From: Gekko japonicus
Lineage: Eukaryota
DNA length: 64,000 nt
Assembly: GCF_001447785.1 (NCBI RefSeq)
Contig: NW_015170278.1
Span: 1,762,357-1,826,356 of the forward strand
Direction of reading: 5' to 3'
Part shown: piece after piece, positions 2,078 through 37,173 of the stretch
How positions within the stretch are numbered: position 1 is the first letter of the stretch
How the letters are laid out: every line of letters starts with the position of its first letter
Notes under the pieces: generated by a model
What the model was told of the DNA's origin: nothing
What the model saw: the letters and a program-made list of their open reading frames with translations, nothing else
The model's database searches: none
Made by a program: the position numbers and the translations under genes

Positions 2078-2195
2078 ATGCTGCCAGAGAAAGACTCTAA
2101 AAAGCTGGGGGAGAAGGACCCCAAGGAAGACCCATCGGTCACTCTTTTCCGGGAGTATCTGAGAATCAAGACTGTCCAGCCAGAGCCTGATTATG
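2078..2195 (+). CDS. ACY1: ACY1 first coding exon (human exon 2); acceptor AG at 2046-2047
   Basis: [39 protein letters not shown], donor g|gtatg, phase 1; a polypyrimidine tract precedes 2047. Confidence 0.93.
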
Positions 2196-8100: not shown

Positions 8101-11100
8101 CTCTTCAGAGCTTCAGACAGATCTTTTTCATCACCTGCTGCCCTGAGAGCCTTTAGCTGGAGCTGCCGGGAATTGTATCTAGGAGTTTTTGCAAGCAAAG
8201 CATGTGTTCTACCACTAGTTACTAGAGAAGAGTGATTGGTTCTGTAACGGAACAAAGTTTGATTCCAGTGGCACCTTTAAGACCAACAAAGTTTAATTCC
8301 CGGTATAAGCTTTTGTGTGAATGCATGTTTCTTCACATATTCTTCAGATGTCTGAAGGTGTGCATGCACATGAAAGTTTATACCCCAACTTAAGCTTTGT
8401 TTGTCTTAAAGGTGCCACTGGAATCAAACTTTGTTCTATTGCTTCTGACCGAAATGGCTACCCACATGGTTCTATAACAAGTTATGCATGTACAAGGTTT
8501 GCAACTTTTAGTTAATCTGGGGTTTGAACTCAGGTCTCTCATAACTGTATCTGACCCTCGTTCTACTAAACCAGTCACATGCTTCAAAATGAGCAGGAAG
8601 AGAGGTGGGGCAACTCTTCTGGATTTGGTGTGATTCATCCTGTTCCTCGAAGGTTCTGATGATGTTCCCCTACCCACATACAATGTTCTGCTGCCCTTAA
8701 GCTCCTTTACTTCTCTTCATGGTATCTTGCTATTTGATGATGTTCCCCTACCCACATACAATGCTCTGCTGCCCTTAACCTCCTTTACTTCATGGTATCT
8801 TGCTACTTGCCAGAGTTGGTGAATAACATATAGTTTGTGGGGGTTGGAGAACATCATTCACACACACACAAACACACACACCCCACCCTGAACACACACA
8901 TACAAGTGCCTGCATAGTCCACCCGTAGCTTTTAAAACTTTTTGGTATTGGAAGTCTGTCTGTGATCGCACCTGTGACTGCTTCCTCATGGCCTTTTGTT
9001 GTCATTTGAAAGGAAAAAATGTGTTCCAGGTGCTGTCAGGTCAGACCACCATTTTGCACATCAAGCTGTCAAAAGTGAGGAAGAGTGGAAATTGTTGGTT
9101 GTTTAGAAAATGCTTAACTCAGTGACTGGGTGCTGAGTGAAGTCCACATTCCAGGTCTTACTGCAAACAAGTAATGTCCCTCTGTTATCTTGAATTATTA
9201 TTGAGTCACAAAGTCTGAAGCCTTGTTTTCATGGCAACATGTGAAAATCTGTATCCGTTGGGGACTCGAATGAGTTAAGCTGGAACACAATTTTTTTGTT
9301 GTTGTTTATACTATTGGTTGGCTCACATCCACTTTGGTCAGGCCAATGCTGAGTTGGAGTCATGTGGACTCTCATTTGCAGTAGACTCAGCGGTTAAGTT
9401 GGCAAGTTTGCTTCTTGCTAATCACTTTTGCAATATGAAGAGGGACTGTTGAAGCCAGTGGGAATGCTCTGGAGTAAGAGATTTGTAGATTGCCGCCCCA
9501 GTTAGTTCTGAATACATGAGATTGAGAGGATGTATTTTGATTGGAAAGACATTATGTGCGGGTGTGTTCACATTTCCATCTGGTGCATGGTGACCTTGGG
9601 AAAGTTCTTGATAAGGCTTCATGTGCTTATTCCCAGCCAGGAAACATTTGATCTACCTACCACTTTGTGAAGGATTCAGCTTTGGTATGAATGGGAATAT
9701 GCCTGAAAACTGACTCTTCCCAGTGAGTGAACCCTGAAACTGAATCCTGACCTGCACATGACAGGGGTGCAGACACTAGGCTTACCATAGGCCGGGAGCA
9801 ACCTCAGTCTTTTCACAGTATCCCTGAGATTTCAGGTGATTGTGTGAGTGCTAAGAGATGAGATGGCAGTGGGATGCTGCCAAATTGTTTTGAATCAAAC
9901 TTTAACTGGCTCAATAGATTGATGTGACTTGATTTTTATAACACACCTGCACTGCATTTCACTCACCAGTGATTAAATTTTTATTCCTCGTTTGAGCAAA
10001 GCAATAGTAGTTCTGTAATACTGTAGAAGATCCCCCCCATGTAGTGCTCAAAGCTTCTTTAGCATAAAATGGGCCACTTCTTCAGCACAGAATGTTTCGC
10101 TTGTTGGGAGGGTCTGTGGCTCAGTGGAAGAGCGTCTGCTTTGCATGTAGAAGGTCCCGGATTCAATCTCCCAGCATCTTCAGTTAAAAGGACCAGGTCG
10201 TAGGTGAGGTGCAAAATTTCTACCTGAGACCCTGGAGAAGCACTGCCAGTCTGAGTAGATGTTACTGACCTTGATGGACCAAGGGTCTGATTCATGATAA
10301 GGCAGCTTCATGTGTCTGGCTGGTAATGTGAGATAGAAAATGTAAGAGAATAACATTTACTGTATGCTTTAATTAGTTTAACTTTTTTCATTCTACACCT
10401 GGAAGCAGGAAATGTAAAAGCCATGCTAAGTAAATTTGTGGGGGAAAGTCCTTGGGGAGAAAGGCTTGATCTCTGGAGGGTGCGTAGTGAGGCAATGAGT
10501 TTCTTACTAGACTGTCAATGCTCCATAATTCTAACATCTCTGAGCTGGTCAAGGATGAGATTATATGAATTGTTCTCTGTGTCCAAGAAGACAAGGGCTG
10601 TAGGAAGGCTGTGCCAGGAAACTTCAGCAGGNNNNNNNNNNNNNNNNNNNNNNNNNNNNNNNNNNNNNNNNNNNNNNNNNNNNNNNNNNNNCCCCCCCCC
10701 CCGTTTTGCAGAAGGGGCCCTGCTGGGACAAGAATCCCGCAGAGGGGACTGTTAGAGTCTTTTTCCATTTGCTTGGCCAAGAACATTACTGAGAGACACC
10801 CCAGTGTAAAAGAAAAAATATTTTTCTTTTCTTTTTAAAATTTGGCCTGAAAAATGTTCTGAAATAGAGGGGGGGAGGGCCTAGCAAAAATAGTCTTAGG
10901 ATAGAATCTTGTTTAGGGACCTTGTGGAAATTGCTTTCATGCTATCTTCCACCTTCTCAAGGAACATGGAGTAACCCTGCTCTAGGCATTTTCCAAATCC
11001 TTGGAATATTCCCACAGTGGCCTGTGTGAGTGTATTACATTTGCTGAATAAGACAGAAAAAGATAAGAGTTTGCAGTATTTCAGGAAGGGTTATAGGACA

Positions 11101-14100
11101 AGACCTGAGAACTTTCAGTAATGAATGGCAAATATGTTGAACATGATGCTTGCAGACATTTCCATGTTTTGTCTTTATCAATCTGTTCTACAAGCAACGT
11201 TCTATACAGTAAGATAGTAGAGAGTTGAAGGAAAGGGGGGGAAATCTTTTTCTTCATATGGAGCTTCTTCTCCTTACGTCCCTCTTCCACAATGTCTGTG
11301 CGCATAAAAATAAAAATGAGTGATTTTCCCTTCCCTCAAGGTCTCTGCAGTTCATGGAGAGCTGAGACGTAATTGCCATTAATAACCTTGTAAGTGTAGT
11401 TGTGGAGCCTTAATTTTAATTAAATGCTGAAATGATATTTGAAATTCTATGAAGTCTATCTTGTAGTTGTGGGGTCCAAACCTTCCCCTTTCCTTTGTGG
11501 GAGGATGCAGGTTGTTGTGTATCACAGCAGTACATCATCTTGGACAATAAAGAACAAGTATGTTTCAGTGATTAGGACTGTGGATAGACTTGGGACGTCC
11601 TGTGTGGCTCAACATTGCTTGATGGCTTTAGGCAACTTGCTGTTCTGCTTGAGAGAGACAAACATATAAAACCTGTAAAGCATTTCCTCAGTAAATGCTT
11701 AAAGGAAAATGCATAAATGGATAAGCGCAGCATGCTTGGCATAAAACAAGGGAGTCAAGTGAGCAAGATAGATGTGGAAGGAAGACACAACCAACAAGAG
11801 ACTTTTTTGGAACTGGTCTACAAGGACTTCCCCTCCAGTTGCCATTTACCTTGGGGCCAGTGTTTTACTGCTGAATGCTGCACAAAGCATAGAAGGGCTA
11901 GGTATTGATGTGATAAATTTGAACGGTTTTTGAAATTAAGGAAAAAAAAGTTACATGGGCATATGTCGTTTTTATAGTGGTTTTCTCCCTCCTTCCAGAC
12001 TCATCAGTGAAATTCCTGGAGAGAATGGCTTCTGAACTTAACCTGCAGTGTCAGAAAGTGGAGGTAAGCCATGTGAACACCCATACTTTGTGTCTGTAGG
12101 GTTGCCTACAGGCTTGGAGAAAAATGTCCAGCCCGGTTAATATTTATTTGTCTTCGCTTGTTTCCGCAAGCTTCAGACTACTTATAACCTACATTTCTCA
12201 TTGGGACTCAAGGTGAGTTACACAGAGTAAGTCAATACAATCAACAGGGTAGGCCATCCAAGAAACAATGCAATAGGATTTGTATTGTAGAAATCTGGAA
12301 CCAACCGGACAACTGGAAACCAAACTGAAGCAAAGCATAAGTATTAACATGACGAATGAAAGGATTCAAAAATTACCCAGTAGAATTCGACTTACAGCAA
12401 CAGGCAGCATAAGGTTTACACAGTAGTATAGACCACAGTTTCTAGCACTTTACCCAAGTAACTGTAGGGCAGTCAGTGGAGTGACTGCAGAATGGAAGTG
12501 TAATATGCATGTTCCATCTAGCTCCCAATAATAGCTGAGGTGCAGTGTTCTTCTGCACCAGTTGGAGTCTCCATGTTGATTTTGAGGGGAGAACAATATA
12601 AAGTGCGTTTAAGTAGTCTAGTCTTGATGTTACTATATCATGGATTCGGGTGGCCAGATTGGTCTGATCCAGCAAGGCTTTTCTTACGTTCTAAAGAGGC
12701 ATGGCCTTGATTTACATTCAGATGGAGGTTGTTGATTAAAGCTAGCATGGCTGTCTCTGTCCCATTGCCTGGCCTAAAGCCAACAGAAAGGAGTCCAGAG
12801 CAGATGAGTTATCCAAGAGGGTATCATAATGCAATAAATTAATCCAAATGTCATAAACCACTGCATGAAGCAACATATTTCTGCTCCATCAGGTCATAAA
12901 CTATTACAGACTGGCCTGTTCTCAACAAGTCCAAAATAAATAGACATATTGTTTTCTAGGTATTGTACTCATCACTCTGCAATAAGCCATTTGAAAAAGG
13001 TTTGTTTCTGTCATGTGTAGCTTGCTGTTTCAGGGTGGGGGGGAAGTAGCTTTTCAGTGGCACACTGTCAAACCCATGTGAACTGCGATTATCTCTGCGT
13101 TGTCTCATTTCTCCTTCATTATTTACAGTCAAATGAAATTCTCATGTTTCATTCTGTACCTTAACAAGTATGAGGGTTAGGGTGGGAGAGAGGGATTATA
13201 CACAAGTTATTGTAATAAAGCAGAATTTTAACTTTCTTATAATAAAAATGTACACTTACATTTGAATAGCTTATCAGTCCAATGGGCAAATGCCAAGGGT
13301 TTTCCCCCACAGGAATATTTTATTTACTGATCAGCTTCGTATCCCACCCTCTCCCTCAGCTCAGTCTGAATATTGGAGGAGTCCTTTTATCCAGTCAACA
13401 GCCCTTGTAATTTATTCCAGGTTTCTCATAGTGTCTCAGAATTTAAAACCACTTCTCCCTGGCCCAGCACTCTACCCACAATACTATCTTGCCTCCTGTA
13501 TGGCAATCCTAGGCACTTTAGCTTAATAGAGGCTTAATGTGTAGAAGTAAAAAGCTGAAGCTTCTCGTGGCATGGAGATAAATAGCATCCCATTAAGCCT
13601 CTGTTTTCTCCAGGTAGTTGACATACCTTTGTGTCTGTGTTTCACCAGGATGCCTGACTATGCTTGGTTCAACATCATATGGTCTTGCTATGCTTGTGAC
13701 TTGGGGAATGAGATGTCATCTAATTTCCTGTTATGTAGGAGGCCTTGTGCTAAAGAAAATTATTTGGTCCCAGTTCTGGTACATTTTGGAGGAGGGGCTG
13801 TGGCCCAATGAAGGAGCCTTTTCTTTTCATGCAGAAGGTCCCAGGTTCAAAGGTAACCAAAAAGGTTGAAACAAAGAAAAAGAAAGTCAAATATAACTGT
13901 ACACAGAGTGCAAAAGTACAAAATATAATATATAATTTAATAATACAATTGCAAGTAAAGTATCATTTAAAAATAACAATCCTATGGTTAAGCATATAAG
14001 TACCTAATCCTGATATAAAGACAAATGTCCATTCATATAAATACAGGTTAAAAGGTATATAAAGTTTCCATATGCAAAAACCAATACCAAATGCGTTTCA

Positions 14101-17100
14101 GCAATAAGCCTTCCTCAGTGATATAATTCAAACCGAGCACTCCATTAATTAAAGATATACATAAAACTAATCATACATCGAATGGACCTGAAATGGGGGG
14201 GGGGGAGAGAAGAGAAAAATAATTATATGTCTGTTAAGAAACATAATAATTTAAATATTTTGAAGTAAATGGGACAGAGATGGCTACCTTACTCACACTG
14301 GTCACTAATGGAGTAAGTGGTGTCAAATATTCTTGATACAACATGAGCAACTCATCAAGATACACATAAAACATTTAACTTAACAACTGCAAATTAAAAC
14401 GCCTCCTAATTATTGTAGAAAAAAATGTGTAGCCTACTGGAAAAAACCTAAATGGTACAATATTTACCTTCTTCTGTCCAATCTGCAATACTAATTTTTA
14501 AAATAGGCAAACAGTCCTCCATGCTCTTCCCAGCCAAGAATGAGCTCTAGATCAATATTATGGACTTAAAAAATTGGAATCACAACCCAACGTAATTTCC
14601 TGATGGCTATAAAAGTGTGTTAGTGTCTCCAGGAGAAACTATTCACCATTTTTGGACTGACGCACATGTTGACCAGTCACCAAACAAATTGGCAGTGGCC
14701 ATGTGCCTTTATTATTTCTTCATCACATAAATTCCTGCCTTCCATTGTTGTTGAAAGCATCCTTTGTCTTACACAAATTAATACCACCTGTGGAATAACA
14801 GCAGTAATAATAAGGCTCTTTGTGCATAAAGTGTATATGGCTGGAGGCATTTGTTTGTGTCCACTGTCTTGTCAGCACATTTTGGATATGTTTAACATTT
14901 TCCCATGCTTCACAACCAATATTATTTTTGCTCAGAGCTATTGTGGAGTATGGTTTTGTGTATAGTTCTGAAAGGAATTAAGGTAGAAGTATTGTGGGAA
15001 TAAAGTTGAATATTTTCAGAGTGCGGCTGTGTTGGTCTGCAGTAGAATAGATAACTCTGAGTCCTTGTATCCCAGTCAGAAGGTGGGAGCGGTATAGCAA
15101 AGAAGGGAACTCAGGATGCAGAGGTAGAGTGTGCATTATAATCAGCTTGATTAGAGCAAAGGGGCAATATTTGGGGGCAGAAAATTATCATCTGTAGTGA
15201 GATCAGAATCCTAAGTCCCTATTCAGTCTTGCGGGGGGGGGGGTTCCATTGTTCTGAACTTGTGAATGAACTCAAGTTCAGCAATCTCACACCGGAATCT
15301 CCCCTTGCAGCTTCTCTGTTCCAAACACTCTTCAAGGGTAGCTCCAAGTAGAGTGCATTTCAGTAGTCCAGTCTAGTGTAACTAAGGTACGGATCACTGT
15401 GCCTAGATCAGACTAGATCAGAGCCAGGAACAGATGAAGTTGATGTGCCAGCCAAAGCATTCCTAACCAAGGGGAGTGTAACCCCATCCAAGATGGGAGA
15501 GCCCTGGTCTGTCTTTCTGCTAACCTAGAGAATCTCTGTCTTGTCTGGATTAAGTTTCACTTTGTTCACCCTCCTCCAACCCATTACTGTCTCTAGTCAT
15601 CAGTTCAGAACATTTACAGCATCCTCGGAATTTGGTGGAAAACAAAAGGTAGAGCTGGGTATCATTTTGCATATTGGTGACACTGCACGCCTCAAACCTC
15701 CTGATGACTTCTCCCAGTAGATATTAAATGGGGGGGGGGGATAAGCATAAAGGGGGAATTGAGCCTATGGTCAACCCCACTCTTATATCAGCAAATGGCA
15801 GGGCTATTTGGTTTTTGTTTTCTCTAAGAGTTCTCTGATAAATATTGTCATTGCCTCCTTATTTTGTTATCTTTTGGTTCAAAGGTGCCTGTAACTGCTG
15901 TTGTTTTCCATAAACTTTTCACTTCAAGATTTCACTTTGGTCTGTGCAAAGGGTAGAACACACTCAAAGCAATTCTGCACCATTTTGTCACAGCTGCATA
16001 GAATAAAGGGCCTACTAGTTGGAAGCGTGCAGGAAAATCATTAAAAGTGACCCGAGCATGTGTAACATCAGATTCCATTTTATCTCTTTAACAGAAAAAC
16101 AAGTAAACTTATTAGCATACTGGAGGGGCAGAGTGGGCAATTAGAAGAGGATGGAGTTTTTTTTCCTTGTTATGCTGCATGTTGTGTGAGATCAGCAGCT
16201 CATCCTTATTAGCGTTGTGTCTTTAGTGTGTTCTTTTCCCCAGGGCCTTGTGCAATCTACAGCATCCTTTACATATAGGTACAGCAGTGGTAAGAGGAGC
16301 TACCATGGTGCGATCCCCTGAGGCTGCATGTAATAATGCCTCTACGTAACTGAGGCTGATTGTATGGTTTTTCCCTACCCCCATCAACATTTGGCCAGAA
16401 AGAAGGGTTGCCAAAAACATGAGGAAAACTGATGTTGATAAGGGGCATCCATGCAGTTGTCTCAGTCACTTACAGCCCACTGTTGTGTAGGATTGCACAG
16501 GGAAGTGGCTTCCACGCCACTGCAGTTACATGTGAGGGAGTTCTTGTTTTTGAAACAATGGGAGTTATTTGCAGAGGGCCCTTTGATACATTTATCTTTG
16601 GAGATGATTGTAAAAATAAGCAGGGTGCATTACACCATCAGAGACTAGTAGTTATTCCATATGATAGAAACTTCAGTGGTTTTAGTTCTTGTCTGTTCTT
16701 TAGGAGCCCTTGGATCAAGGCCTTGAATCTCTGTGGTCTGATGAATGGGGGGCCTGAGGTTTGTGATCTGGTAGACATCTGATCAAAAATATGCTATGTG
16801 AAAAGTTTTGATAATGGTGGAGTTTCTGTTGGCTCTTTACTGTTTGCAGCAAACCTTTCTCAGTCTTTAATCCCTTGCAGAGCTGGTATTCCATTAATCC
16901 CTTATTACAGGTTCTCAGTCTATTCCTGAATAGATCTAGACTGACCTTTCTAACTTGATGTGTCATATTTAGACAGATAATTATTACAAATGAACATTGT
17001 GCCAAACAAAAAACAAAAATTAAGGGGGGTAAAACAAGCTTGAATTGTAAAGAATAAAAATGATGTTGGTTTTCTCTTGTATAGGGAATGCCCAGTTTTC

Positions 17101-20100
17101 CTCTCCCAAATTGGCCTACCTCAGATAGGTAAAATACCCCTTGCAAATCATATCTTTTTAATTTTTGAAAGAGGCATTCATTAGTGAAGTTAAATCACTT
17201 CGAGAACTGAGGCTTGCCTCTAATCTAGCATTTGTTGTGGGAACCAAGGACATTTTTAAAGACTACCGACAGTTAACAATCTTCCGGCTTGCCTCTAATC
17301 TAGCATTTGTTGTGAGAACCAAGGACATTTTTAAAGACTGTACCAACAATTAACAGTCTTCCTGAATCTGTTGGTTGTTCCTAGAAGTTCTGTAGCTCCT
17401 CTGGACCCCTGAGGAATCTCTGTGGTTAGAAAGTACTGTTTTTTATTATGTCCTCAGAAACCGAGCTGCAGATGTGGACCTGCGTCGGAGGGAGCTTCTT
17501 GGAACGTCTTGACTTGCCTCTTGGACGGGTTCTGTCTTTATTTTGGGTTCTGAGGGTCATACTGATTCTGCCTGTGATGCTATATCCTATCCATAGCGTC
17601 TTTTCATGGAATGAATTGACTTCTTTCAGCCTTGCAAATAAGTGGACAGAAATTACTAGTCCATAGAGTCCCCCTACAGCTGCCTGCCTAGATGTTCTTA
17701 AACTTGTCATGTGTGGCACATTGAGCCAACTCTCTTCTGAATGTGCTCTTGCCTGTTCACTTAAGATGATATTACTTCCCACAGGGAGCAAGTGAGTGTC
17801 TGTTGTCTCCCAGCTTCTCATTCGAATTAATAGAATGATCCTCTTGTCTTTCTAAGAAGGGGGAAAGAATAATAACCCCCATTCAAATCTTCAGATTGCT
17901 GCAAAATCCAAGCTATAAAAAGTAGAATACCAAACAGGGTCTCCACATAGTAATACAAGAGTCCTCTTGATACCGTTATTGCCATTATATGGAGCCCCCT
18001 TCTTATAAAAAGAGGTTTTGTGGTACAGTGTATAGGAACTTTCTTAGAGATCTTTCTATCCATACAGCTTCAAAGAAAGGAAGAACAATCCCCTGCTGAC
18101 CTAATTTTCTATTGCAGGTTTGCCCTGGCCGTGTGATCACCATTCTGACCTGGAAAGGCACAAACCCACAACTCCGTTCCATCTTGCTGAATTCCCACAC
18201 AGATGTCGTGCCTGTGTTTGAGGTTAGTGAAGGAGGGGCAGGTTAGGGGTTGAAGGCTTTCTAATCTTCCGGCTACTTGTGATTTGGCTTTGGGGAATAG
18301 ATGTTGTTGGTCTGAGCGTGTTCTTATCTAGAATTCCCGGTGACAGGATATTTTGCTCCAGAAGAGAAATCCTCCTCCTGTCTCACCTATGTTTTGAACC
18401 CACAGTAGATGTAGGTTACAGTGCTTATGTAGGTGTAATGCATTCTCACACACCCCTACTTACCATATCAACACCAGTGCCATCCTAGATGGTTTAGTAC
18501 AACAAAGTCCATTCTGAATTAATTCAGGTGAAGAGGGTGCATGATATCTTTGACAAAATTAATTCTGTCACTTCATTCAGAGGCACTTCGATATGTTCCT
18601 GGGTTTGTGGGAACAGAGTGCCAACTTCAGGGGAAAAATAAAGATGTACAAGACCTTTGGGTGGTACCATGGTAGGTTATGGAACAGCTTCTCTAAAACA
18701 GTTATACCAGGCTCCCAAGAACTCTTTTCCCACAAAGAATGAGCTAAATAGCATTATTTTAAAAACTCTTATCTGTCATGGCCAACCACCGGAAACCATC
18801 TGGATGAAATTATACAGGCTTTTCCTCGGTGTCTTTTCAGACTGGGTTGGACTGAGCAGATAATGAATCTGCTTCAGTATTGTAGCCAACACAACTTCTA
18901 ATGAATCTGCTTCAGTATTGTAGCCAACTTGTGGTGTGGTCTCCTTCCACTGAGTGACAGTGGGAACTCCATTTTGAGGTAATTGTCTCTGTCCTTTGGC
19001 CCTAAGGCAGCACTGAAGGGGCCGAGTTAACATGAGGCCCTTTTCAGGTAGGACTTGATGGCTGATTCAGAGCAGCTCTTCACTCAAAGAACCGATACTT
19101 GTGATGTTAGAAATGTGAAAAATTTCTGTTGATTTCAGTCCCCTGGACTTGAATCGTGAAAGGCTCATAGTTTAAATGAATCTTTGAGAGAACCAATTCT
19201 TCTGTATTATCCTTTGCTGCTGCTGAGAAAAGCCCTTTTTGCGTTTGTCTTGGTTTGGGTTCAGGTTGAGTTGTGAAGCTTACACCTCTCTGCTTCTCTA
19301 ATTTAGCCTCTTAGTGGTTGATTCTCCAAGGCATAGGGGGATGAGCTCCCTAACAACTTCTGTACAGGCTTTGCTTATTCAAGGAAGATAGATCCATCAA
19401 AGGGTATGAGCCACAGTAGTTAAATGGAACATATAGGGAGGCAGTAATTCTCTGAATACCAGTGCAGGGAGGCATCAACAGAGGGAGGCACCTTTATGCC
19501 ATGCTTGTGGGTCTTCCTGTGGCATCTGGCTGGGCAGTGTGTGAAACAGGAGGCTGGAGTAGATGGACCATGAGTCTCATGGCTACTCTTATGTTCTCAT
19601 ACAGCTGTCCTGTCCTTGTCATCTTGTCTCCACCTCCCTTTGCTTAGGGGCAGATTGCCACTCCGTTCAGTCCAGAAGTAGCTCCAGAGACATCCTTCTC
19701 CTCACAGCTTTGTTGCATTCCCTAGGGTGCCATTCTTGTGTAGCCTTGTATCCTCCAGCATCCTCATCCATCTTCTAAGGGGTACTCTGTGCTGTTTTCC
19801 CATTCCTGCAGGATTATTGGTGCTGTGACCCCTTTGCAGCTTTCAAGGACTCTGATGGAAACATCTATGCTCGTGGAGCTCAGGATATGAAATGTGTCTC
19901 CATTCAGTAAGTCCAGCCACCTTCCCTGTCACATTTCTGTTGTATAGTGGAATTTTCCTGTGCTAATTAAAAGGGTTTCTGTGCCAGTTCTGCATTGGAG
20001 AGTGATGGGAAGTGGGAAGCATGGCTGAGAGGATCTTTCCACCTTACCACATCAAGTACTCACTTTAGTTACATCCACATGAATCTGTAGAAGGGATGGA

Positions 20101-23100
20101 AGTCAGTGATCAAGGTAATGTGGAGAGCCAGTGTGGCATAGCGGTCAAGACTGTCAGACCAGTATCTGGGAGACCCAGGTTCAAATCTCCACTTGTGCCA
20201 TGGAAGCTCATTGGGTGACCTTGGGCCAGTCACACTCCAGGCCTAACCTACCTCACAGGGTTGTTGTGGGGATAAAAAGGAGGAGAGGAGATTTATGCAA
20301 GCCACTTTTGGTTCTCACTGGGGAGAAAGGTAGGGTATGAATGAATGAATGAATGAATGAATGAATGAATGAATGAATGAATGAATGAATGAATGAAATA
20401 ATCTTATGACTTGTATCAAGTAGTTATTACTGGTCTGGTACCCTCAATGAAAACTGGAATAAGTGGGCTGCCCAGACACAACTGTGAGCTGGTGTGTTGT
20501 TGTTACATGTCTGGGAGTGAAAAAGAGATTTTTGGAACTGTTTTATGTATTAAGTGTATAGGAGCAGGTTGCTTCCATTTTGAACTGCAAGGCATGTCTT
20601 AGGTGCGAGGGAATTCTGATCCAAGCTTTTGTTAACTATGGTAGTCCTTATGCTCCCCTCACTCCCGGCATGGCTTTTCTTTAAATCAGATGCTTCATCT
20701 CCTTCATCATGCCTTTCTCTGGGTACAGTCCTGACTGAGTACGGGTCAAGTATCCCTGTGTCCCCGGAAGTTTTAGCAACCACTAAACAAAACCTCTTTC
20801 TCGTTAGATACATAGAGGCCATCCGGAGGCTGAAAGCTGAAGGGAGACATTTCCCAAGAACAGTTCATATGAGCTTTGTCCCAGGTAAGTTAAATAGTGG
20901 GACATAAAGAAGCAGCCAGTTGTTTCCTAGCATCTGCCCAGAGTGGTAGAACCTGAAAGTGGCTGAGCTGGAGATGGGATGACCCACAGTGCAATCCTAA
21001 ACAGAGTTATACCCTCCTAAGCCTGTTGGTTTCAATAGACTTAGAAGGGAGTAACTCTGCTTAGGACTGTACTGGTAGGCTTTTTGGATCAAGGGATACT
21101 TTCATTAGAGGCAGATCTCCAATAAACCAAGAAGCAGGTGTCTAAGGAAATACATAGAAGCTAGCAAAGTATTGGTATCTGTTCAGCGTGTGTCTGCCAC
21201 AGTCTGATAGCTCTGTATTAGTTTGGGCCTCATCTATTTTCTACTCCCCAGGCCACTCACCCCACTTCTGTCTCCAAAATGTAACCAGTTAGGCCAGAAG
21301 GAATAAAGTAGCCAAACATGTCAAGAATTGAAAAATTAGATTTCATGTGTAGAGAAAATGATGGTGGTTTAAAAACCCACTTCTTTGATTTTCCATAGTA
21401 TTTGGTCCCATCTGTTCTGCTCTCTTACCCCCCTTTGCTCAGGTGCTCAAAGAACCATTCCTATTCTCTCTCTAGATTTTAAAAGAGTAACAAATTTATA
21501 TGCTAGATTTAGCATCATGTAATTGTATTACACTTTAGGAAAAAGAGGCTGAGTCTCAGCTTAAAAGACAGCAGTAGCAGCTGACATTCATTCACTCCAA
21601 TCCCTGCCAAACACACTTAGACTGTGTATCGTCTCCTTCCCCACTTAATAACCCACCCCAGAAAAAAACAAACAGCCCCAATTACGCCCACATCCATTGA
21701 CTGCGGAGCGCAGAAGCTCTCAGTCTCACTCTGCACCCATCTTTGGGTGCATCCTAAACACTGGCTGTGTATACGCTCATGCACAACAGAACTCAATATC
21801 TAACGATCACCCTTCAAACCCTTTCCACCCTTCAGTGTGCAAAGAAGGCAGCTCACCATATTGAGGAACAAGCGGCTCCCACAAGGGGCCGGAAAAGGCG
21901 GGTTTCTGCTGTCGCCATGGAGACGAGATGGAAGTCGAATACAGTGACGCGTAATTGGCTAAATGCTGCCTAAAGCAGGAACTGACGGAAAGTTTCGTCC
22001 AGACCCGGCCTACTCAAGACGCGGCGCTCCTATCGGCGCTGTGACAGACTGGGAGAGTTATGTGCGCATGCGTTAATGGAGATCGTATTAACGGCGAGGA
22101 TGCTAATTAGCTCACGGCGGGGGGGATGGCTCAATTAAACCTTATGGGGGAACATTTTAAACAAACAACCACAGACACCAGCCATCTTACAAACACAGGT
22201 AACTTCCAGTCTGTGAGTGGTCCGAAATCACAGCTTCCACGGCAAGAACCTGGGTCTGGCAGACCCTGCTCTGAAGCACTAACTGCTGTGCCTAGAGTAG
22301 CGAACCTCCAAGTAGAGCCTGAAGATCGCTGGTTATCGTAACTGAACTCCAGACAACAGATCTCTTCCCCCCCTGGAGTAAATAAATGCTTTGGATGGTG
22401 GCCTCTATGGCATTCTATTCAGCTGAGGCCTCTCCTCTCCCCTCTCCGAACTCTGGCTTCCTTACACTAGCTTCCTTAGACACAGAATAGCCTGGAATTT
22501 CCCATCCTGGAGCTGGCAACCCTAGTCAGGACTGGCTCCAATGCGTTCCTCACAACAGCCACTGAGGGGGAAGTTAGTCCTGCACAGGAGGCAAGCAGGA
22601 GAAGCGTCTTTGTCAAGAGAGAAAGCTGTTTGCCAGTAATTCTGACAGGGCACAGTGGCTGAAGGGGAAGTGGGCGGGGAAGAGGAGCAGACCCAGCACC
22701 TGGCCAATGGCACATGAGTACTCTTGAGTGGCGGCTGATGGGCCAATGGCTGAGGGAGCACATTTCACAGCCAATGGGAGAGCTGGAAAGTGCCACTCCA
22801 CTTCACAATTATATATAAGGAGAGATTCATGCCTGACTTTCCATAATTATTTATTCCATTTATACCCTTTCTTTCTTTCATCATACAATTCAAGACAGCA
22901 TGATAAGGTTTCCAGGAGGTCTCCCATCCTGGCAATGCCCCAGTCTTGTTCTGCTCCAGCAAGTTTGCTGCAGATCAGACCTTGGGGCCAAGACGAGTGG
23001 GGGTGGGGGGAGGAAAAATGAGCCATCTTTGCAGCACTACTGGAGGGACAAAGCTGGGAAAATTCTCCCCCAAGCTGTTGTCTCTTGAGGGCTGCAGTGA

Positions 23101-26100
23101 ACCCCTCCCCCCCATCAACAAGCATCAACTGACCGTTGGGGACAGGTGGGATCTTTTGATGTCACTAGCCTGTCCATCTGCTTTCCCTCCTGCTGAAGAG
23201 ATGGTCCTTGGTGGTTACCTACTGCTTCCTTCAACCTAAGAGAGAGAAGAGTCCTGTTAGGGCACAAGCTAGCTACCATAGAAAAAGGAGTCTTCTGCTC
23301 CACTTTTTTGGGTATTTTTGCATTTGTGTGTGCGTGTGTGCGCACGCCCCTGTGCCTGGACTGGAAGTCATGGCAACCTCTGGTGACTCCTACTGGGGCA
23401 TGAAGGATGTTTAGAGAAATGGCTTGATAGCCTGCCCCTGCCTCCTGGCCTTGGTATTTTTGGAGGTCTCCCATCCAAATACTTGCCAGGGTTGGCCCTG
23501 CTTAGCTTCTGAGATCTGACGAGATCAGGCTTGCTGGGCTATCCAGGTCAGGGCCCTTCTGCTCCACTTTTGAGGCACAAGGATGTGAACATTTTGACCT
23601 GCCTAAGACTAATGAATGCCTTGGCCACTTAGCTGATTCAGAATTGCCACTGCTGTGGCTTCCTTGCGTATAAGATATCACAGAAAGCCTACTGTATCTT
23701 CTAGCCAAACATATTGCCAATTCTGTCTTTTGTTTCCCTGTAGGTCTGGCGAACCCATCAGACACCTTCACTGTATTCTATGGTGAGAAATGCCCATGGT
23801 GTAAGTAAGATTTAGGATTCCATCTTGTATGAAGCTGCAGAGTCATTGGTCCAGATCGCTAACTCTGACTGGCTGTGGCTCTGCAGGGTCTTAGGCAGAG
23901 CAATATTTTTCCTCCTCCTGCTTCCCAAGAGCATTTTTAGCCAAAGATGCCAGGGACTGAACCTAGGACCTTCTGCAGTGTCCTGCCACTGAGCCACAGC
24001 CCCTCTACCCATTTGTAGTTTCTAAAAACATGCCTTCTATCTATTTCTCATTGTTCTATTTAAAGATACACATCTTAAGAACTGTACTAAAAATGCAGAT
24101 AAAACTTTATAAGAAAACTAACATGTGTGTGTGTTTCACAGTGAATGCACAAATTCTTCCAAACTGTTCTGGAGTTTTGCCATTCATATGTCATAGTTGT
24201 GAAAAACACATATGTAATCCTTTATTAAGATTTTAATCTTCTTGGGGGAGCCAAAATAGATAATTGGGCCAGCTTCCTGTCGGTATTGAAGTGGAATATA
24301 TAAGATTCTTAGCCACAGATGTTTTTCACTTTTGCAACAGATTGTAATCTGTGGATTTAAAGTTACACTACTGGGCTGTATTTGGAATATAAGACCCTCA
24401 CGGGGACAGAGTACGCATGGCATTGGAATTCTGTGATTGAAACTCCACACTTATAATTTGCTGTCAAGAACAGTTGTGGAGATGCCCCTGTAAGAAACAT
24501 GATCATGGTGCTAGGCAAGGGAGATTAAACTCTTACCCTGTCTTATTTCTCTGATCAAAATGCCCCCACCAACTGCTGTGAATCTCAGTAGACGGCCACA
24601 ACAAATGAATCTCTTTTTACCCCTACTAGGACTTAAAGAGCATGTGGGGAGCCATTTCCAGTTGGGCTGTGTGGGGGAAAGGTAACACCCCCTCCCCAGT
24701 GTAGTGGCTGTGATTCTGATCGGGGGCCCCCATGGCTCTTTTATAGGGCCAAGCAGCACATCTGGAATTGCAGCCACAGAAGTTCAGCTTTGTGTGTTGT
24801 TTGGCCCTTAGCCACATCTTTTTTTAAAGTGTTTTTATACTTCAAAATATTCAGCTAACAGCTTTTGTGACTGCTTCTGTTGAATTGCAGCTTTACAAAG
24901 TATTCATATCTGCTCTGTATTCTTGGTGCTTGGGGGGCAACAGTGGGAGGGCTTCTGGAGTTCTGGCCCCACTGGTGGACCTCCTGATGGCACCTGGGTT
25001 TTGGCCACTATGTGAGTGTTGGACTGGATGGGCCCATTGGCCTGATCCAGCATGGCTTCTGTTATGTTCTTATATCTGAATTTTGCTATCCGTGTGCATC
25101 AAAAAATTGACATTCGTGCATGAACCCCAATGATCCTGCACCTTTTAAAAATGAGTATTCAAAAATGAAGAAATACACCAGTGGGTACTGACTGTCACTT
25201 AAACATGATTGATAATGTTCAGTGATGTATGTTTTAAGAGTAGAAGTATAGATATCTCCTAAGAGAGCCAGCAGTTGGATCATGTGCTATAAAGATGCGC
25301 TGGAGTTGTTGGTGCCAAGACCCTGCTTCTCTTCCAGCTGGCTGTGCCCTATTTCTTTCCATTAGCAACTGCTTTCTTGCTATCGCTTTCTTAAATCTTT
25401 TGTATAAACATTTGCGTAAGGTTTGGAATTTAAATTCTTTTAAACAATGTTTTGCTTACTCAGAGGAATTCCATTTTTAGTGTGACTCTCAGGACCTAAA
25501 TAGATGGTATGCTGGAGTTCCATGTCAGGAGCTCCTGGTGGTTTTTTAAAAGGCTTTTACCAGTGTGTGTGTGTGGTGGTGGTGGGTTTTGTTGTTGTTT
25601 TTTAGGCTTTTACACAGGACATAACTAGATGGTGCACTCCATGTTACAAACTAGAAGATACACTGGGAGTTCCATGTCAGGAGCTCCCAGTGTTTTTTAA
25701 GGCTTTTTACCAGGTGGGCTGGGACCAATTCAGACTGGCACCAGGGGAGGATTTTTAAAGCACCCCTCCCTGCACTGTTTCCCAATCTCAAATGGCCCCA
25801 GTGGGTTATTGTTCGCCATGTTATGAAGCTTCTGTGTACTAACCAGAACATGTAAGTCTTCATAACAGGGGAAATAGCACCCCAACTGTTTTCAAGTGGG
25901 GGAAATGGCATGGGGAAGGCTTAAAATCCCCCTTCCCCTCATGTCCCAGTCTGATATTCTAACTACGATATCACAACACCTCCTCTCACAAAGTTGTGAA
26001 TTCTTCTGTTGCAGTCATTCCCATTGCTAAAGGAAGAGCCCACAGCCCACTTTTCAAAGCAAGCGCTCTCCTTGACAGTGGGAAGCGTGGAAGCAGTTCT

Positions 26101-29100
26101 CCTTTCAGTGTAGGTGTTGCTCCTTTTGATCGTGACCCATATACTTTGGAAATTCTGCTGCAAGAGGTTCCAGCTCCATTTGTAGCTGGGCCACATGGTG
26201 CTTCTCTCCTTGTTCTGCTTGCCTTTCATTTTGCTCTTCCTCTCCTTCATACTTGCAGGGATTAAAGTGAAAGTAGAAGGGAACCCTGGACATGGATCTA
26301 GATTCATTGAGGACACAGCTGCTGAAAAGCTGGTAAGAGAACACCCTGTAAAGGCTAGAGGCAGGGTGCGGAGAGGGGCTGCTTGTGTGAGGCCACAGGA
26401 GACAGTCGGTTTCTTAGACCTGCTGTGAAAGCAGATGTCAGGCTACCTTCATAAGCATCATCTTGCACAAGCCAGACGCACTGCCTCTGGGGAAGTGTAG
26501 ACTTGACATCTCCCAGGTACTAGACATCTTACATTAAAAATCTGGTATTTGCTTGGTAGGTTGTACTCTATTTGATTTGACTCTTGTACTTTCCTATCCA
26601 CAGCACAGAGTGATCACTTCCTTCCTAGAGTTCAGAGAGCGTGAAAAACAAAGGTGAGGGGGAAGCCTGTAGTGTAAGCCAGATTTTTCTTCCCTGACCT
26701 CTTCCAGGGCTTACTTTCATTCACTTATGCCATAAGAGCAAGATTCAAGTCCCGGGGCATAAGCTTTCAAGAGTCAAAGCTCCGTCAGATGGGACTCGAA
26801 TCTTGCTCTTCTACTGCAGACCAACACAGTTACCATTGGGAAATTACACCATAACAGTAGCTGTGTTTGTCTACAGAAGCACAAAAAGAAGAAAAAGTGC
26901 TTTGATAACTCAGAAGTGAAACTGATTATGACATGGCCCTTCCTATGGAGACAGACACTTCATCAGATGCATAAAGTGGGCTGTTCTTTAATCATCAGTG
27001 GCCATCTGTCTGAAGGCAGAGTCCGAGACTTTGAAGTTTTGCTTCCTGCATCTGCTGTTCACACCCTGTGTGGCACTGGGCCAGACATCTCCATTTATTT
27101 GTTGCTCAGTTTATCCTTTTGTATAATGAAACTGGGAACTGGTGTAGCCTAATCATTAAGAAGGAGACATCCAAATTTCTGGTTCCTATCCCATGTGTAT
27201 AATGAAACTGGGAACTGGTGTAGCATAATCATTAAGAAGGTTCCTATCCCACGAACTCACCAGGTGGCCATAGACAAACTGCTGTCTCCCATCTTTCCAT
27301 GCACAATAGCATGTTAGTAATAATGGCCAGCCTAGCAAAATGATGTAAGACAATATAAAAATAAAAGCACAATGAACAATTAGAAACAAGTATTGTGCAA
27401 CATTATGACAACTTTTGCCAGTTCTGTTTGCAAATTACGTAGTTGTATGATAGATTTATTATTTGCTTCCAGTTATAATTTGCTATTTATCGGCATGCAA
27501 AGGTTATTAGCTTGTTTTCAGAGCAATCAGTAGAGTTTTTGATTCACAAGGGCATTGTAGGATCAGCCCGTCTTTTAGTTCCATTTCTGATACTGTTCAG
27601 TGGACCCTACTGGTGCATGGCTTGCTACAGTCTGAACAGTTTAAGCACCTCAGCTAAGGTGCAGGTGTGATATTCATCAACAGTTTTCCAACTCTGTGTA
27701 GCGGAGGACATGGGTGCTTTGGTAGTATCAGCCACACTTGGGACAGAAATAGAGTGTCAGAAGCAGGGTATGTGTATGCTTCAAGAACTCTTGCAAAGTA
27801 CTGTTATCATGTATGAGAGAGGTATTTTATGCAGTCCATTTTCTGTGGATAGGGCTGTTAGTCACTCTGCCTTTTGCAAATGCCCATGGTTCCTACAGAT
27901 GTTTGGGAAAATGAGCTTGAGCCCAAGAATGTGCTGTTGGGGTGGCTCTTCAATCTCTGGAAGTTAGGAAGAAGCTTCCAGAGTTTCACCAAGGTGGGGT
28001 GAAAGACTTTGTCCTTTCCTTCACACAGGTTGAAATCAGAGAAGCACCTTACCTTAGGCGATGTAACCTCCCTTAACCTAACCATGTTGAATGGGGGCAT
28101 CTCCTTCAATGTGGTCCCCTCTGAGATGTCTGCTGGCTTTGACATCCGCATACCACCCACAGTGGATTTAAAGGTACAATAGAGAAACAGGTAGAGAAAT
28201 GGTGAGCAGTTTTCAGTCTGTGAGATGTTGCCTGGAATCTATGATACCTCCTGGGAGCTGCCTGGAATGTGTCTTGGACTGTGATTCTTATAGCTGTATT
28301 TTCCAGGGTCCTTCACATTAAAAAAAAAAGAGTTGAAAACATGTTATTAAAAAAAATTGAACTATTAAGAAAGATCTCTCCTTGCATTGGTTGCAGTTGA
28401 TGATGTAGCGGTTTCTGTTGTTTAAAAGCTTTTTATTGTCAGGATAATGTAATCCATTTTAAACATTTTTTTGTTTGTTTAAAAGCTTTTTATTGTTAAA
28501 GCTTTTTATTGGATGATGTAGCGGTTTCTTGGAGCCCTGATTGGCTGTGGCTGAGAGAACCAGAAGGACTGGTCCTGAGGCCCAGTCCCATTCTCCTGTC
28601 CTTTGTTCTATCTGAGACGCAACAGCAGAGGCAGGTCATTCCTTCCAAATGCAAGAAAGCATTTGCAGCAACAGGCTGCAAGAAAATAGAGACCTCACTA
28701 GCGCAACCAATAAGGGGATCATCGGAGACCCTGCATGGCCTTACGCCAACTCGGGACACTGATTAAAGCTTTTTTTTTTTTTTAAGAAGCATCTGATTTG
28801 TACCGTTATGTGGCTAGAACTGGTAAAGGTGGAAAGCAGAATATTATGGGATAAATTGAGAGGCTTATGGAATGACAAGCCAGACTGAAATCAGGATCTT
28901 CACTCAGGAATCACTCACTTTCCCACGGTCTGTCTTGCAGGCGTTTGAAGAGCAGCTCACAGCCTGGTGCCGGGCAGCTGGGGAAGGTGTTGCCTATGAG
29001 TTCCACCAGGTAACTGCAGAGAGGAGGGAGCATTCCAGCAGCTTGTTGCCGTCCCTTAGACCTGGGAGCATTGATCCATTCCTGGTCTTTGACTCTGTTC

Positions 29101-30432
29101 TCTACCTTACGACTGCCACAGTCTCTCTGCCCTGGGTCTTTTGTCTCAACACGGCTACCTTTCTGTTCTGCACTGTGTCCCTCACTCTCTTGCGCTCCTG
29201 CTGCCGCTTCTGCTCTGCCCTGGCCACAGACTCTTGCACTGTGGGTGCTGCGTTGCTGCCTCCTCCAAGCTTTACCTTCTACCCTTCTCTTTGGGCTAGA
29301 AATACACGGATCAGTCGATGACCTCCACAGAGGAATCTGACCCCTGGTGGAAAGCATTCAGTAGCACCTGCAGGGACATGTGAGTAAGGTGCCATATCTT
29401 CCCCACTCTTACACTCGCTCCTTCGGGTGCATGTATGTATGTAAAGCTATCCTGTCAAATGCTTGGAGGAGGTCTGCCTTCCTTTACCCAGTGCCCTGTA
29501 TGTTAAGTGTTACTGCTAAATGGGCAGCTTACTGCTGGTGGCTGTTCCATTTGCAAGGCACAGAGGAGGCAATGTCAATTGGGAGGGGGGGGCGACATTC
29601 AAAGCATTCAGAACAGTGCCTGTATAAAGAACAAGGGAGTTGCCCAGTGACCCTGAACCTTCCCAACATTTCCCCTGTTCTCTCCTATGAGGTATCCTCA
29701 ACTCCAGTTGCCAGTTTGGTGTAGTGGTTAGGACGGCAGACTCTAATCTGGGAGAACTGGGTTTGATTCCCTACTCTTCCACATGCAGCTACTGGTGTGA
29801 CCTTTGGTCAGTCATAACTTCTTTCAGAGCTGTTCTCAAGAGCAGTTTCTGTCAAGAGCTCTCTCAGCCCCACCCACCTCACAGGGTGTCTGTTGTGGGG
29901 AGGGGAAGGGAAAGGAGTTTGTAAGCCGCTCTGAGACTCCTTCGGGTAGTGAAAGGTGGGGTGTAAATCCAATCTCCTCCTCTTCTCCCATTATAAAAAT
30001 GCCCACTGTCTGATGATCCTGCCTTCAAACACAGGAGGAGGAAGGACAGGGTTAACTCAGCAGTGGGAGCTGCTTCTTATGATGTCTCTGTCTTGTTAGG
30101 AACATGAAACTGAAGTGCGAGATCTTTCCTGCTGCCACAGACAGTCGCTATATCAGGGCAGTGAGTACAAGTTTATTTCCCGTGTCTGTCAGTCACTTGG
30201 TGTCTTCTCTTGTATTTTGTTGAGATCTTGTTTATGATAGTTACTTCTCCTTGCACTGTATTTCCAGGCAGGCCACCCAGCAATTGGATTCTCCCCCATG
30301 AACCGCACTCCTGTGCTGCTGCATGACCACAATGAATTCCTGAATGAGCAGGTCTTTCTTCGTGGGATTGAGATCTATGCCCACCTCATCCCAGCGCTGG
30401 CTAGTGTCCCTCCTCTACAAGCAGAGGCCTGA
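2078..30432 (+). CDS. ACY1: Aminoacylase-1 gene, 13 coding exons found (1161 nt, 386 aa + stop); equivalent of human exon 7 absent, so possibly a catalytically dead form, a pseudogene or a misassembly
   Basis: Spliced translation contains [70 protein letters not shown] and [17 protein letters not shown]. Exon sizes are 118/65/105/95/77/57/74/50/145/69/80/61/165, all GT-AG. Confidence 0.95.
2826..3560 (-). mobile_element. CR1 LINE 3' fragment
   Basis: ORF 3093-3506(-) [24 protein letters not shown]...WNRLP is the CR1 ORF2 C-terminus; the 3' tail reads gaatcatagaatcatag on the + strand. Confidence 0.93.
3580..4422. mobile_element. GC-rich non-autonomous DNA transposon (PIF/Harbinger-like MITE)
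   Basis: Imperfect terminal inverted repeats gggtgcggtcacac / gtgtgaccacagcc with ttt on both flanks; similar termini on the elements at 31789 and 47828. Confidence 0.55.
5000..5345 (-). mobile_element. L2-type LINE 3' end fragment
   Basis: Minus strand has the ...gccctttt cagtcgtagcc tcctatggaatg...ccttcagaagg...aaggcc 3' pattern, similar to the + strand L2 end at ~40850-40960. Confidence 0.5.
8025..8215 (-). mobile_element. tRNA-derived SINE (Squam3-like), degenerate
   Basis: Reverse complement resembles the 10106-10315 copy (gaacatatgaagctgccttg...). Confidence 0.6.
8240..8465. mobile_element. Palindromic non-autonomous Penelope-derived element (two inverted terminal repeats)
   Basis: gaacaaagtttgattccagtggcacctttaagac (~8250) is inverted by gtcttaaaggtgccactggaatcaaactttgttc (~8403-8436); related units at ~26733-26835 and ~35995-36165. 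Confidence 0.65.
10106..10315 (+). mobile_element. tRNA-derived SINE (Squam3-like), near full length
   Basis: A-box tggctcagtgg, B-box-like ggattcaatc, body ending taaggcagcttcatgtgt; several other copies in the window. Confidence 0.8.
11999..12063 (+). CDS. ACY1: ACY1 exon (human exon 3)
   Basis: ccttccag|ac ... [22 protein letters not shown] ... gag|gtaagc; 65 nt. Confidence 0.92.
12150..12650 (-). mobile_element. L2-type LINE fragment
   Basis: ORF 12442-12675(-) contains [16 protein letters not shown]...LQLVQ, the L2 RT C-terminal motif SRLDYCN. Confidence 0.7.
15020..15325 (-). mobile_element. Penelope-like element 3' fragment (GIY-YIG C-terminus and terminal repeat)
   Basis: Minus strand gives ..[25 protein letters not shown], typical of the Penelope endonuclease end. 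Confidence 0.7.
15330..15720 (-). mobile_element. L2-type LINE fragment, degenerate
   Basis: Minus-strand remnants of [17 protein letters not shown] and RLDY motifs. Confidence 0.6.
18118..18222 (+). CDS. ACY1: ACY1 exon (human exon 4), Zn ligand His (human H80)
   Basis: ttgcag|[35 protein letters not shown]|gttagt; 105 nt. Confidence 0.96.
19812..19906 (+). CDS. ACY1: ACY1 exon (human exon 5), Zn ligand Asp (human D113)
   Basis: ctgcag|[32 protein letters not shown]|gtaagt; 95 nt. Confidence 0.96.
20125..20396 (+). mobile_element. tRNA-derived SINE followed by an (ATGA)n microsatellite (20337-20396)
   Basis: agccagtgtggcatagcgg...ggttcaaatc...gggtgaccttgggccagtca...ctcacagggttgttgtg, then about 15 ATGA units. 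Confidence 0.8.
20808..20884 (+). CDS. ACY1: ACY1 exon (human exon 6)
   Basis: cgttag|a [25 protein letters not shown] g|gtaagt; 77 nt, ends in phase 1. Confidence 0.96.
20986..21074. mobile_element. Short palindromic MITE-like repeat; similar copies at ~33570-33647 and ~41818-41897
   Basis: cagtgcaatcctaaacagagtta...taactctgcttaggactgtactg forms an imperfect hairpin. Confidence 0.6.
21857..21898 (-). other. Putative short first exon with a 5' TOP-like start, resembling RPL29 exon 1 (orphan; downstream exons not found)
   Basis: Minus strand: CCTTTTCCGGCCCCTTGTGGGAGCCGCTTGTTCCTCAATATG|GTGAGC, a pyrimidine-tract start with a strong donor. It shares TTCCGG...GGGAGCCGC...TATG| with human RPL29 exon 1 as I recall it, and RPL29 is the minus-strand neighbour of ACY1 in human. 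Confidence 0.55.
21899..22125 (-). promoter_or_regulatory. CpG-rich housekeeping-type promoter
   Basis: Dense CpGs in a CpG-depleted background; RFX X-box-like gtcgccatggagac 21911-21924; minus-strand CCAAT (attgg 21954-21958) about 57 nt upstream of the putative start; ETS-like CGGAA; NRF1 motif tgcgcatgcg 22063-22072. Confidence 0.7.
22292..22524. mobile_element. hAT-type MITE of the TAGGGTTGCCA family, degenerate; further copies at ~39215-39450, 46140-46335, 46690-46900, 53540-53722, 59948-60103 and 62990-63195
   Basis: Ends in tggcaacccta and shares the internal gatctccagac...cccctggagaaaatggctgc-type body with the other copies. Confidence 0.65.
22672..22820 (+). promoter_or_regulatory. 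Promoter-like cluster: GC box, three NF-Y CCAAT boxes, TATA box
   Basis: gggcgggg 22672-22679; RRCCAATGG with CCAAT at 22704, 22743 and 22771; tatatataagg 22810-22820. Confidence 0.5.
23308..23555 (-). mobile_element. 5S rRNA-derived SINE with 16-bp target-site duplication
   Basis: ~23453-23535 (ggtctcccatccaaatact...ccctgcttagcttctgagatctgacgagatc) is the reverse complement of 5S rRNA; TSD cttctgctccactttt at 23292-23307 and 23556-23571. Confidence 0.88.
23744..23800 (+). CDS. ACY1: ACY1 exon (human exon 8)
   Basis: ctgtag|gt [18 protein letters not shown] t|gtaagt; 57 nt. Confidence 0.95.
23820..24010 (-). mobile_element. tRNA-derived SINE (Squam3-like)
   Basis: Ends ccactgagccacagcccct, the reverse complement of the SINE head. 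Confidence 0.65.
24925..25073 (+). mobile_element. CR1 3' UTR/tail fragment
   Basis: ttggactggatgggcccattggcctgatccagcatggcttctgttatgttctta, the squamate CR1 3' end pattern. Confidence 0.65.
26259..26332 (+). CDS. ACY1: ACY1 exon (human exon 9), trans-acting His (human H206)
   Basis: ttgcag|gg [24 protein letters not shown]|gtaaga; 74 nt. Confidence 0.96.
26604..26653 (+). CDS. ACY1: ACY1 exon (human exon 10)
   Basis: ccacag|[16 protein letters not shown] ag|gtgagg; 50 nt. Confidence 0.93.
28029..28173 (+). CDS. ACY1: ACY1 exon (human exon 11)
   Basis: acacag|g [48 protein letters not shown]|gtacaa; 145 nt. Confidence 0.96.
28941..29009 (+). CDS. ACY1: ACY1 exon (human exon 12)
   Basis: ttgcag|[23 protein letters not shown]|gtaact; 69 nt. 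Confidence 0.96.
29300..29379 (+). CDS. ACY1: ACY1 exon (human exon 13)
   Basis: ggctag|[26 protein letters not shown] at|gtgagt; 80 nt. Confidence 0.95.
29710..29988 (+). mobile_element. tRNA-derived SINE
   Basis: gccagtttggtgtagtggttagg...ggtttgattcc...ctcacagggtgtctgttgtgggg; same family as 49686-49935 and 63340-63860. Confidence 0.8.
30100..30160 (+). CDS. ACY1: ACY1 exon (human exon 14)
   Basis: tgttag|g [20 protein letters not shown]|gtgagt; 61 nt. Confidence 0.96.
30268..30432 (+). CDS. ACY1: ACY1 last coding exon (human exon 15), Zn ligand His (human H373)
   Basis: ttccag|[57 protein letters not shown]; the first candidate polyA hexamer I saw is attaaa at 31519. Confidence 0.96.
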
Positions 30433-34419: not shown

Positions 34420-34665
34420 GCTCAAATCATTTGGCCACCAAATGAGAAGGGAGCACTCACTGGAGAAGACCCTGATGCTGGGGAAGATTGAAGGTCAAAG
34501 AAGACGGGGACGGCAAAGGATGAGATGGTTGGACAGTGTCATCGACGGAACGAACATGAAGTTGAGCAAATTTCAGAGGATGGCGGAAGACAGGAAGGCC
34601 TGGCGGGATCTGGTCCATGGGGTCGCAAAGAGTCGGGGTCGACTGTGCGATTGAACAACAACAAA
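34420..34665 (+). mobile_element. RTE-BovB 3' fragment
   Basis: MRREHSLEKTLMLGKIEGQRRRGRQRMRWLDSV...VHGVAKSR; (CAA)n tail. Confidence 0.93.
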
Positions 34666-36964: not shown

Positions 36965-37173
36965 ATTTGTTGTTCAGTCGCACAGTCGGGTCTGACTCTT
37001 CGCGACCCCATGGACCAGATCCCGCCAGGCCTTCCTGTCTTCCGGCGCTGCATCTATGACACTGTCTAACCACCTCATCCTTTGCCGTCCCCGTCTTCTT
37101 TGACCTTCAGTCTTTCCCAGCATCAGGGTCTTCTCCAGTGAGTGCTCCCTTCTCATTTGGTGGCCAAAGTATT
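36965..37173 (-). mobile_element. RTE-BovB 3' fragment
   Basis: ORF 36974-37156(-) REHSLEKTLMLGKTEGQRRRGRQRMRWLDSV. Confidence 0.9.

Follow-up and report, generated by a model that had tools for sequence, protein, structure and literature searches.

Within a 64,000-nucleotide stretch of Gekko japonicus DNA (the window), a minus-strand promoter and short first exon lie inside the gene for aminoacylase-1 (ACY1), at the place where one of its exons is expected. The locus raises two questions: to which gene the element belongs, and whether it occupies this place in the animal or only in the assembly. A first-pass annotation had put the element antisense in the slot of ACY1 exon 7, and its observation of such an element is confirmed here. 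Most probably, a normal RPL29 promoter has come to stand in the wrong place in a draft assembly. No paper on the ACY1/RPL29 locus in reptiles was found in the RPL29 plus ACY1 and synteny literature, judged by listings, and none was found for Gekko with RPL29. The main text of a study of squamate gene loss (PMC13005343) names neither gene, and the accessible parts of three further sources (10.1101/379347, PMC8428372 and PMC8047918) hold nothing specific to add.

The ACY1 gene and its missing exon

The ACY1 coding span (2078..30432, plus strand) comprises 13 coding exons, whose joined reading frame of 386 residues is free of internal stops, and each of the 12 introns is of the GT-AG type. Exons are numbered here by what we take to be the human ACY1 scheme. 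Introns 2 and 3 measure 9.8 and 6.1 kb (within 2196-18117), and a CpG-rich patch at 3500-4500, inside these large introns, looks repeat-derived. Exon 6 (20808..20884) has intact AG/GT borders and ends in phase 1, and exon 8 (23744..23800), likewise intact, starts in phase 1, so that splicing from exon 6 to exon 8 is in frame.

Residues 154–183 of the 416-residue squamate ACY1 are absent. They are the only part of the coding sequence for which six full or near-full squamate proteins, used as tblastn queries, bring up no exon, and the element indeed stands in the slot of exon 7. When 89 exon-7 segments, drawn from 120 proteins, were used as queries, the window gave only six-residue chance matches. 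None of the seven AG..GT candidates of 87–93 nt in 20885-23400 is exon-7-like, the 340 nt next to exon 8 being covered by tblastn only. The interval between exons 6 and 8 contains no N.

Of the 30 residues encoded by the missing exon, 21 are invariant among 18 squamate proteins. Alignment to 1Q7L equates human E147, E148 and E175 with squamate residues 155, 156 and 183, all of which lie in this exon; these residues are described as the acid-base catalyst and metal ligands (PMC13058870). The protein encoded in the window is thus without the general base (E147) and the zinc ligands (E148 and E175) of a functional aminoacylase-1 of the M20 family. The remainder of the gene shows no sign of pseudogene decay, its frame being free of stops and frameshifts, its splice sites unbroken and its substitutions not in excess. 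It differs from Gekko kuhli at 3 of 291 residues and departs from the squamate consensus at 5 positions, as against 3–10 in seven comparison proteins.

A protein search with the last exon returned squamate ACY1 proteins, with Gekko kuhli the closest among the matches listed, and no protein among the matches listed (15 of 22 and 15 of 43 members of the large clusters) corresponds to the window's own ACY1. Exon 7 is present in seven of eight gecko or gecko-like proteins, including that of G. kuhli; the eighth is a fragment that starts after exon 7. A precise skip of exon 7 is annotated in 12 of the 270 ACY1 proteins fetched. These models (P0017, P0025, P0054, P0069, P0174 and P0237-P0243, from birds, a viper, tuatara and an agamid) would be without the catalytic glutamate. 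The models of birds, Vipera, Sphenodon and Phrynocephalus have the same in-frame 6–8 junction as the window gene. In Vipera, however, the annotation includes a full-length isoform as well as the skipped one, whereas in the gecko window exon 7 is absent from the DNA. Since such models exist, an exon 6–8 junction in RNA would by itself be no proof of genomic loss.

The antisense element and its likeness to RPL29

On the minus strand, positions 21898-21851 hold a C-started pyrimidine tract, GGGAGCCGC at 21880-21872 and the exon end TATG/GTGAGC (the slash marks the splice border), with the donor at 21856. The C-initiated tract, the short exon and its terminal TATG/GTGAGC are thus as first described. 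The RPL29-like first exon (21857..21897, minus strand) is 41 nt long, its start being placed by the initiator consensus, and is composed of the TOP tract, GGGAGCCGC and a terminal ATG with A at −3. It has the form of a TCT/TOP first exon, short and closed by a strong donor (ATG/GTGAGC). The predicted 5′ splice site itself reads GTGAGC (21851..21856, minus strand), where human and mouse rpL29 have gtgagt. The ribosomal-protein (rp) initiator consensus is (Y)2C+1TY(T)2(Y)3 (Perry 2005, PMC554972). With +1 at 21897 and a pyrimidine run of 7 nt from there, the gecko sequence agrees by eye at 8 of 10 positions, and the strict form YYCTYTTYYY is unmatched. The sequence behind the donor (21401..21855, minus strand) is probably the start of RPL29 intron 1, and shows the strongest reversal of strand composition (plus-strand T+G skew of −0.169, z of −3.6).

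A TATA-less, CpG-rich promoter (21898..22250, minus strand) precedes the exon, as delimited by CpG counts and a motif scan. Positions 21751-22250 contain 27 CpG at an observed/expected ratio (o/e) of 0.84, against window medians of 4 and 0.19; only 4 of 254 500-nt windows hold as many as 27 CpG. The 200-nt windows starting at 21751-22001 are CpG-rich, with GC>=0.5 and o/e>=0.6. Promoter motif patterns were scanned over the window. The RFX-like palindrome (21911-21924) and the NRF1-type GCGCATGCG (22064-22072) each occur once in the window. CCAAT lies at 21954-21960 and TGACG at 21945 and 21983, the former within TGACG/ACGCGT at 21945-21952. ETS-like motifs lie at 21889-21895 and 21986-21991, the second of which provides an upstream site of the GABP/ETS or Sp1 type. 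The scan found no TATA near −25 of the TOP promoter. The CpG-rich patch with its RFX-, CCAAT-, ETS- and NRF1-type motifs, reported in the first-pass annotation, is therefore upheld by both counts and scan, and so is its remark on the preservation of CpGs, of which 21600-22300 has 31 and 20885-21600 has 1. That they are kept suggests a working unmethylated promoter, unlike an old intronic copy.

Exon 1 of human rpL29 is 43 nt long and holds TTCCGG, GGGAGCCGC and TATG/gtgag in that order (PMC554972, supplement 3), which agrees with the human exon that the first-pass annotation had cited. All three rpL29-specific blocks are present in the gecko exon, in a comparison with mammals only. In Perry's human–mouse alignments of rp promoters, the combination belongs to human rpL29 alone. 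TATGgtgag occurs once in that file, in human rpL29, and GGAGCCGC occurs four times, two of these being exon 1 of human and of mouse rpL29; the layout, with its gap dashes and broken lines, may conceal further matches. The three-block pattern has one match in the window and none in 100 shuffles, with an analytic expectation of 7e-8; these figures overstate significance, because the pattern was composed with both sequences already seen. Its single match in a metagenome collection, on a bacterial contig, is a chance one.

The candidate gene had been named beforehand, from synteny, RPL29 being presumably convergent with ACY1 in human. Human anchors in ACY1, RPL29 and DUSP7 lie 42.1, 53.0 and 112.7 kb from the PARP3 promoter (PMC10778978), in agreement with the earlier placing of RPL29 as the downstream neighbour of human ACY1. 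Judged from sequence and against mammals only, the element is very probably the promoter and first exon of RPL29.

The likeness extends beyond the three blocks. Human and mouse rpL29, as given in PMC554972, share with the gecko element a C-started pyrimidine tract ending in TTCCGG, a mid-exon GGGAGCCGC, a short first exon, an upstream ETS/GABP-like actttccg and the lack of a strong TATA; the exon end TATG/gtgag is shared with human rpL29. The spacing of the blocks is different, and RFX-, CCAAT- and NRF1-type motifs are unmarked in the mammalian rpL29 promoters of that source. The gecko element also differs from mammalian rpL29 in that no YY1 site is seen just inside the intron and in that no RPL29 coding exon lies downstream within the window. 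Four short RPL29 peptide motifs, scanned over all six frames of the window, gave no match with 0 or 1 mismatch, and shuffles gave the same result; none of five acceptor-like sites within 6 kb past the donor opens an RPL29-like peptide. The scan agrees with the earlier report that the window holds no RPL29 coding exon. The claim of a transplanted RPL29 5′ segment is thus kept in part: the three exon 1 blocks make its RPL29 identity very probable, but that RPL29 is not seen in the 33 kb downstream says little for its loss in a region where ACY1 alone spans 28 kb. The RPL29 body may lie beyond the window.

The putatively foreign segment and the scaffold

The segment that looks foreign to ACY1 covers approximately 2.2 kb (21100..23300), with a T+G fraction of 0.474 compared with 0.526 in the other ACY1 introns; its borders were picked by eye on a cumulative walk after the data had been seen and are not mapped breakpoints. 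Alone among the 12 ACY1 introns, the exon 6–8 interval has a negative plus-strand T+G skew, the other 11 showing T+G excess, and the reversal peaks just behind the minus-strand donor. Elsewhere in ACY1, none of 105 windows of 2.2 kb (overlapping, approximately 10 independent) is as low in T+G. A palindromic dispersed repeat at the left border (20987..21074), with a related copy near 33570-33650, is a candidate join point, and a second dispersed repeat lies upstream of the promoter (22291..22524), with related copies near 39212, 46187, 46688 and 62995. Rfam gave no matches on 20400-23300. With its opposite strand composition and its repeat-bordered ends, the segment looks foreign and unweathered; approximately 2 kb reads as sequence shaped by evolution as promoter and intron of a minus-strand gene, without weathering in its present place.

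On the plus strand, the CpG-poor stretch 22670-22820 holds a GC box, three CCAAT motifs (22702, 22741 and 22769) and a TATA-like run (22810). This cluster lies within the putative foreign segment and points in the opposite direction to the TOP promoter.

The scaffold carries three N runs and several local duplicates of 90–99% identity. One duplicate (34089-34306 and 34666-34883; 218 nt, 96%) lies round the 3′ end of an element that we take to be BovB-like, and a 398-N run separates two oppositely oriented ends of the same family (36967-37711). The regions 34089-34883 and 36967-37711 are assembly scars, located where RPL29 lies in the human order. In ACY1 intron 13, 95 nt at 29444-29538 recur 2.2 kb downstream at 31655-31749 with 90.5% identity, as a local copy or a small repeat family.

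Origin of the arrangement

An assembly error is the explanation that we favour, with some reserve: a local mis-join probably placed the animal's true RPL29 promoter in the slot of exon 7. The element would then comprise the promoter, the first exon and the beginning of intron 1 of a normal gecko RPL29 gene. Transcription of RPL29 mRNA would start at its C-started pyrimidine initiator in the animal, and its GTGAG donor would be spliced to RPL29 exon 2. During assembly, a promoter-bearing piece of approximately 2 kb would have been joined into the scaffold of ACY1 at ends flanked by repeats, and the piece with ACY1 exon 7 lost, both genes being intact in the animal. We infer that the joins are assembly errors and that the RPL29 body is located elsewhere. 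The first-pass annotation had offered duplication, deletion or misjoining as routes to the replacement of exon 7. Misjoining is favoured because ACY1 is otherwise intact, exon 7 is present in G. kuhli and the scaffold has the look of a draft; as an arrangement in the animal, the replacement is putative. Against a mis-join, the lack of N between exons 6 and 8 means that both joins are closed sequence, and the 398-nt downstream N run is small for a hidden RPL29 body. Every observation that supports a mis-join is also compatible with a genuine event no older than a few million years, and the 90.5% recurrence in intron 13 may be real local copying at the locus.

Such an event, a young deletion–insertion that is private, polymorphic or recently fixed, is distinctly less probable than not, yet is the strongest of the alternatives. 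Exon 7 would have been deleted and the 5′ end of the neighbouring RPL29 copied in, in its native orientation, by a repeat-mediated or template-switch event. Judged from the DNA, the ACY1 encoded by this allele would be in frame but inactive, and antisense transcription from the captured promoter may extend through exons 6–4. The closed sequence over both joins and the in-frame passage from exon 6 to exon 8 suit this explanation, and a single event is enough if RPL29 survives beyond the window. Local template switching predicts neighbouring donor sequence, and the donor gene here is the syntenic neighbour. Of the words sampled from the stretch, two DNA runs from one study carry fractions of 0.66 and 0.57, which shows that much of the sequence is present under one organism label but bears on neither join, and one of the two may be the source sample. 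The other 18 of the 20 matching runs share <0.2 and were not used as evidence, and no RNA run is among the matches listed. Weighing on the other side, the remaining ACY1 exons bear no sign of relaxed selection, G. kuhli retains exon 7, and exon-deleting templated insertions are presumably rare per genome relative to local errors of draft assemblies.

A fuller version of the real allele is improbable: a complete RPL29-type 5′ module would have replaced a catalytic exon in one event, creating at once an in-frame dead ACY1 and a strong TOP-led antisense unit. In this improbable version, that unit would run for 4.3 kb without canonical poly(A) signals and with its own start codon, and the allele would represent both a knockout of ACY1 arisen in nature and the birth of a gene. 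Downstream of the donor, the minus strand is free of AATAAA and ATTAAA for 4.3 kb (17542-21856). The first canonical hexamer stands at approximately 17542, and nine hexamers lie in the next 5.5 kb (12000-17542), before exon 3; an antisense RNA, as suggested in the first-pass annotation, would therefore cross exons 6, 5 and 4.

It is quite unlikely that the element belongs to a different TOP gene, as its first exon, or is a chance look-alike, with exon 7 missing for a separate reason. Many rp genes end exon 1 on ATG/gtgag, which is found 22 times in the rp promoter file (TTCCGG is found 53 times), the likeness to rpL29 amounts to approximately 24 bases in three differently spaced blocks with only mammals as reference, and the strict initiator is unmatched. 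Against this stand the scarcity of TATGgtgag and GGAGCCGC outside rpL29 in the same file, the near-equal exon lengths (41 and 43 nt) and the fact that the match is to a syntenic neighbour named in advance. Very unlikely indeed is a two-way promoter of RPL29 (minus strand) and an ACY1 first exon (plus strand), belonging upstream of exon 2 with the genes head to head in geckos. Speaking for it, the N-terminal extension of Varanus ACY1 weakly matches plus-strand 21986-22057 in tblastn (E of 0.04), a donor-like CAG/GTAACT stands at 22199 on the plus strand, and the 2 kb upstream of exon 2 hold no recognised ACY1 first exon or promoter. However, the match is not upheld by a frameshift-tolerant scan with five N-terminal extensions, in which the element ranks 38th to 62nd of 256 bins, and ABHD14A–ACY1 fusion models (P0035 and P0227; quail and gelada) point to a conserved upstream neighbour, suggesting ABHD14A in birds and mammals.

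If the favoured mis-join is correct, a closed, gap-free stretch of a draft assembly can fake both the loss of an ACY1 exon and an orphan promoter, and would mislead surveys of squamate gene loss. If the arrangement is real, it would offer a rare view of an enzyme being lost as a promoter is captured from the adjacent housekeeping gene.

Each possibility has a known counterpart. Among the false losses recorded in older vertebrate assemblies, missing exons rank with the commonest (Kim et al. 2022, PMC9516821). The gecko locus is similar to the false exon losses described there for short-read assemblies, in that one exon is gone from an intact conserved gene on a repeat-rich, gapped scaffold. However, in those cases GC-rich promoters vanish, whereas in the gecko the promoter is present and misplaced, with no gap at the site. 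A real arrangement would be comparable to LUC7L–HBA2 and PRDX1–MMACHC, in which an antisense RNA crosses the promoter of the victim gene and methylates it (PMC6994850), a housekeeping promoter reading antisense into its neighbour after a lesion in each case. It would differ from these pairs in that poly(A) hexamers precede exon 3 in the gecko, with the ACY1 promoter >19 kb away, and in that the ACY1 enzyme would already be dead through the loss of exon 7.
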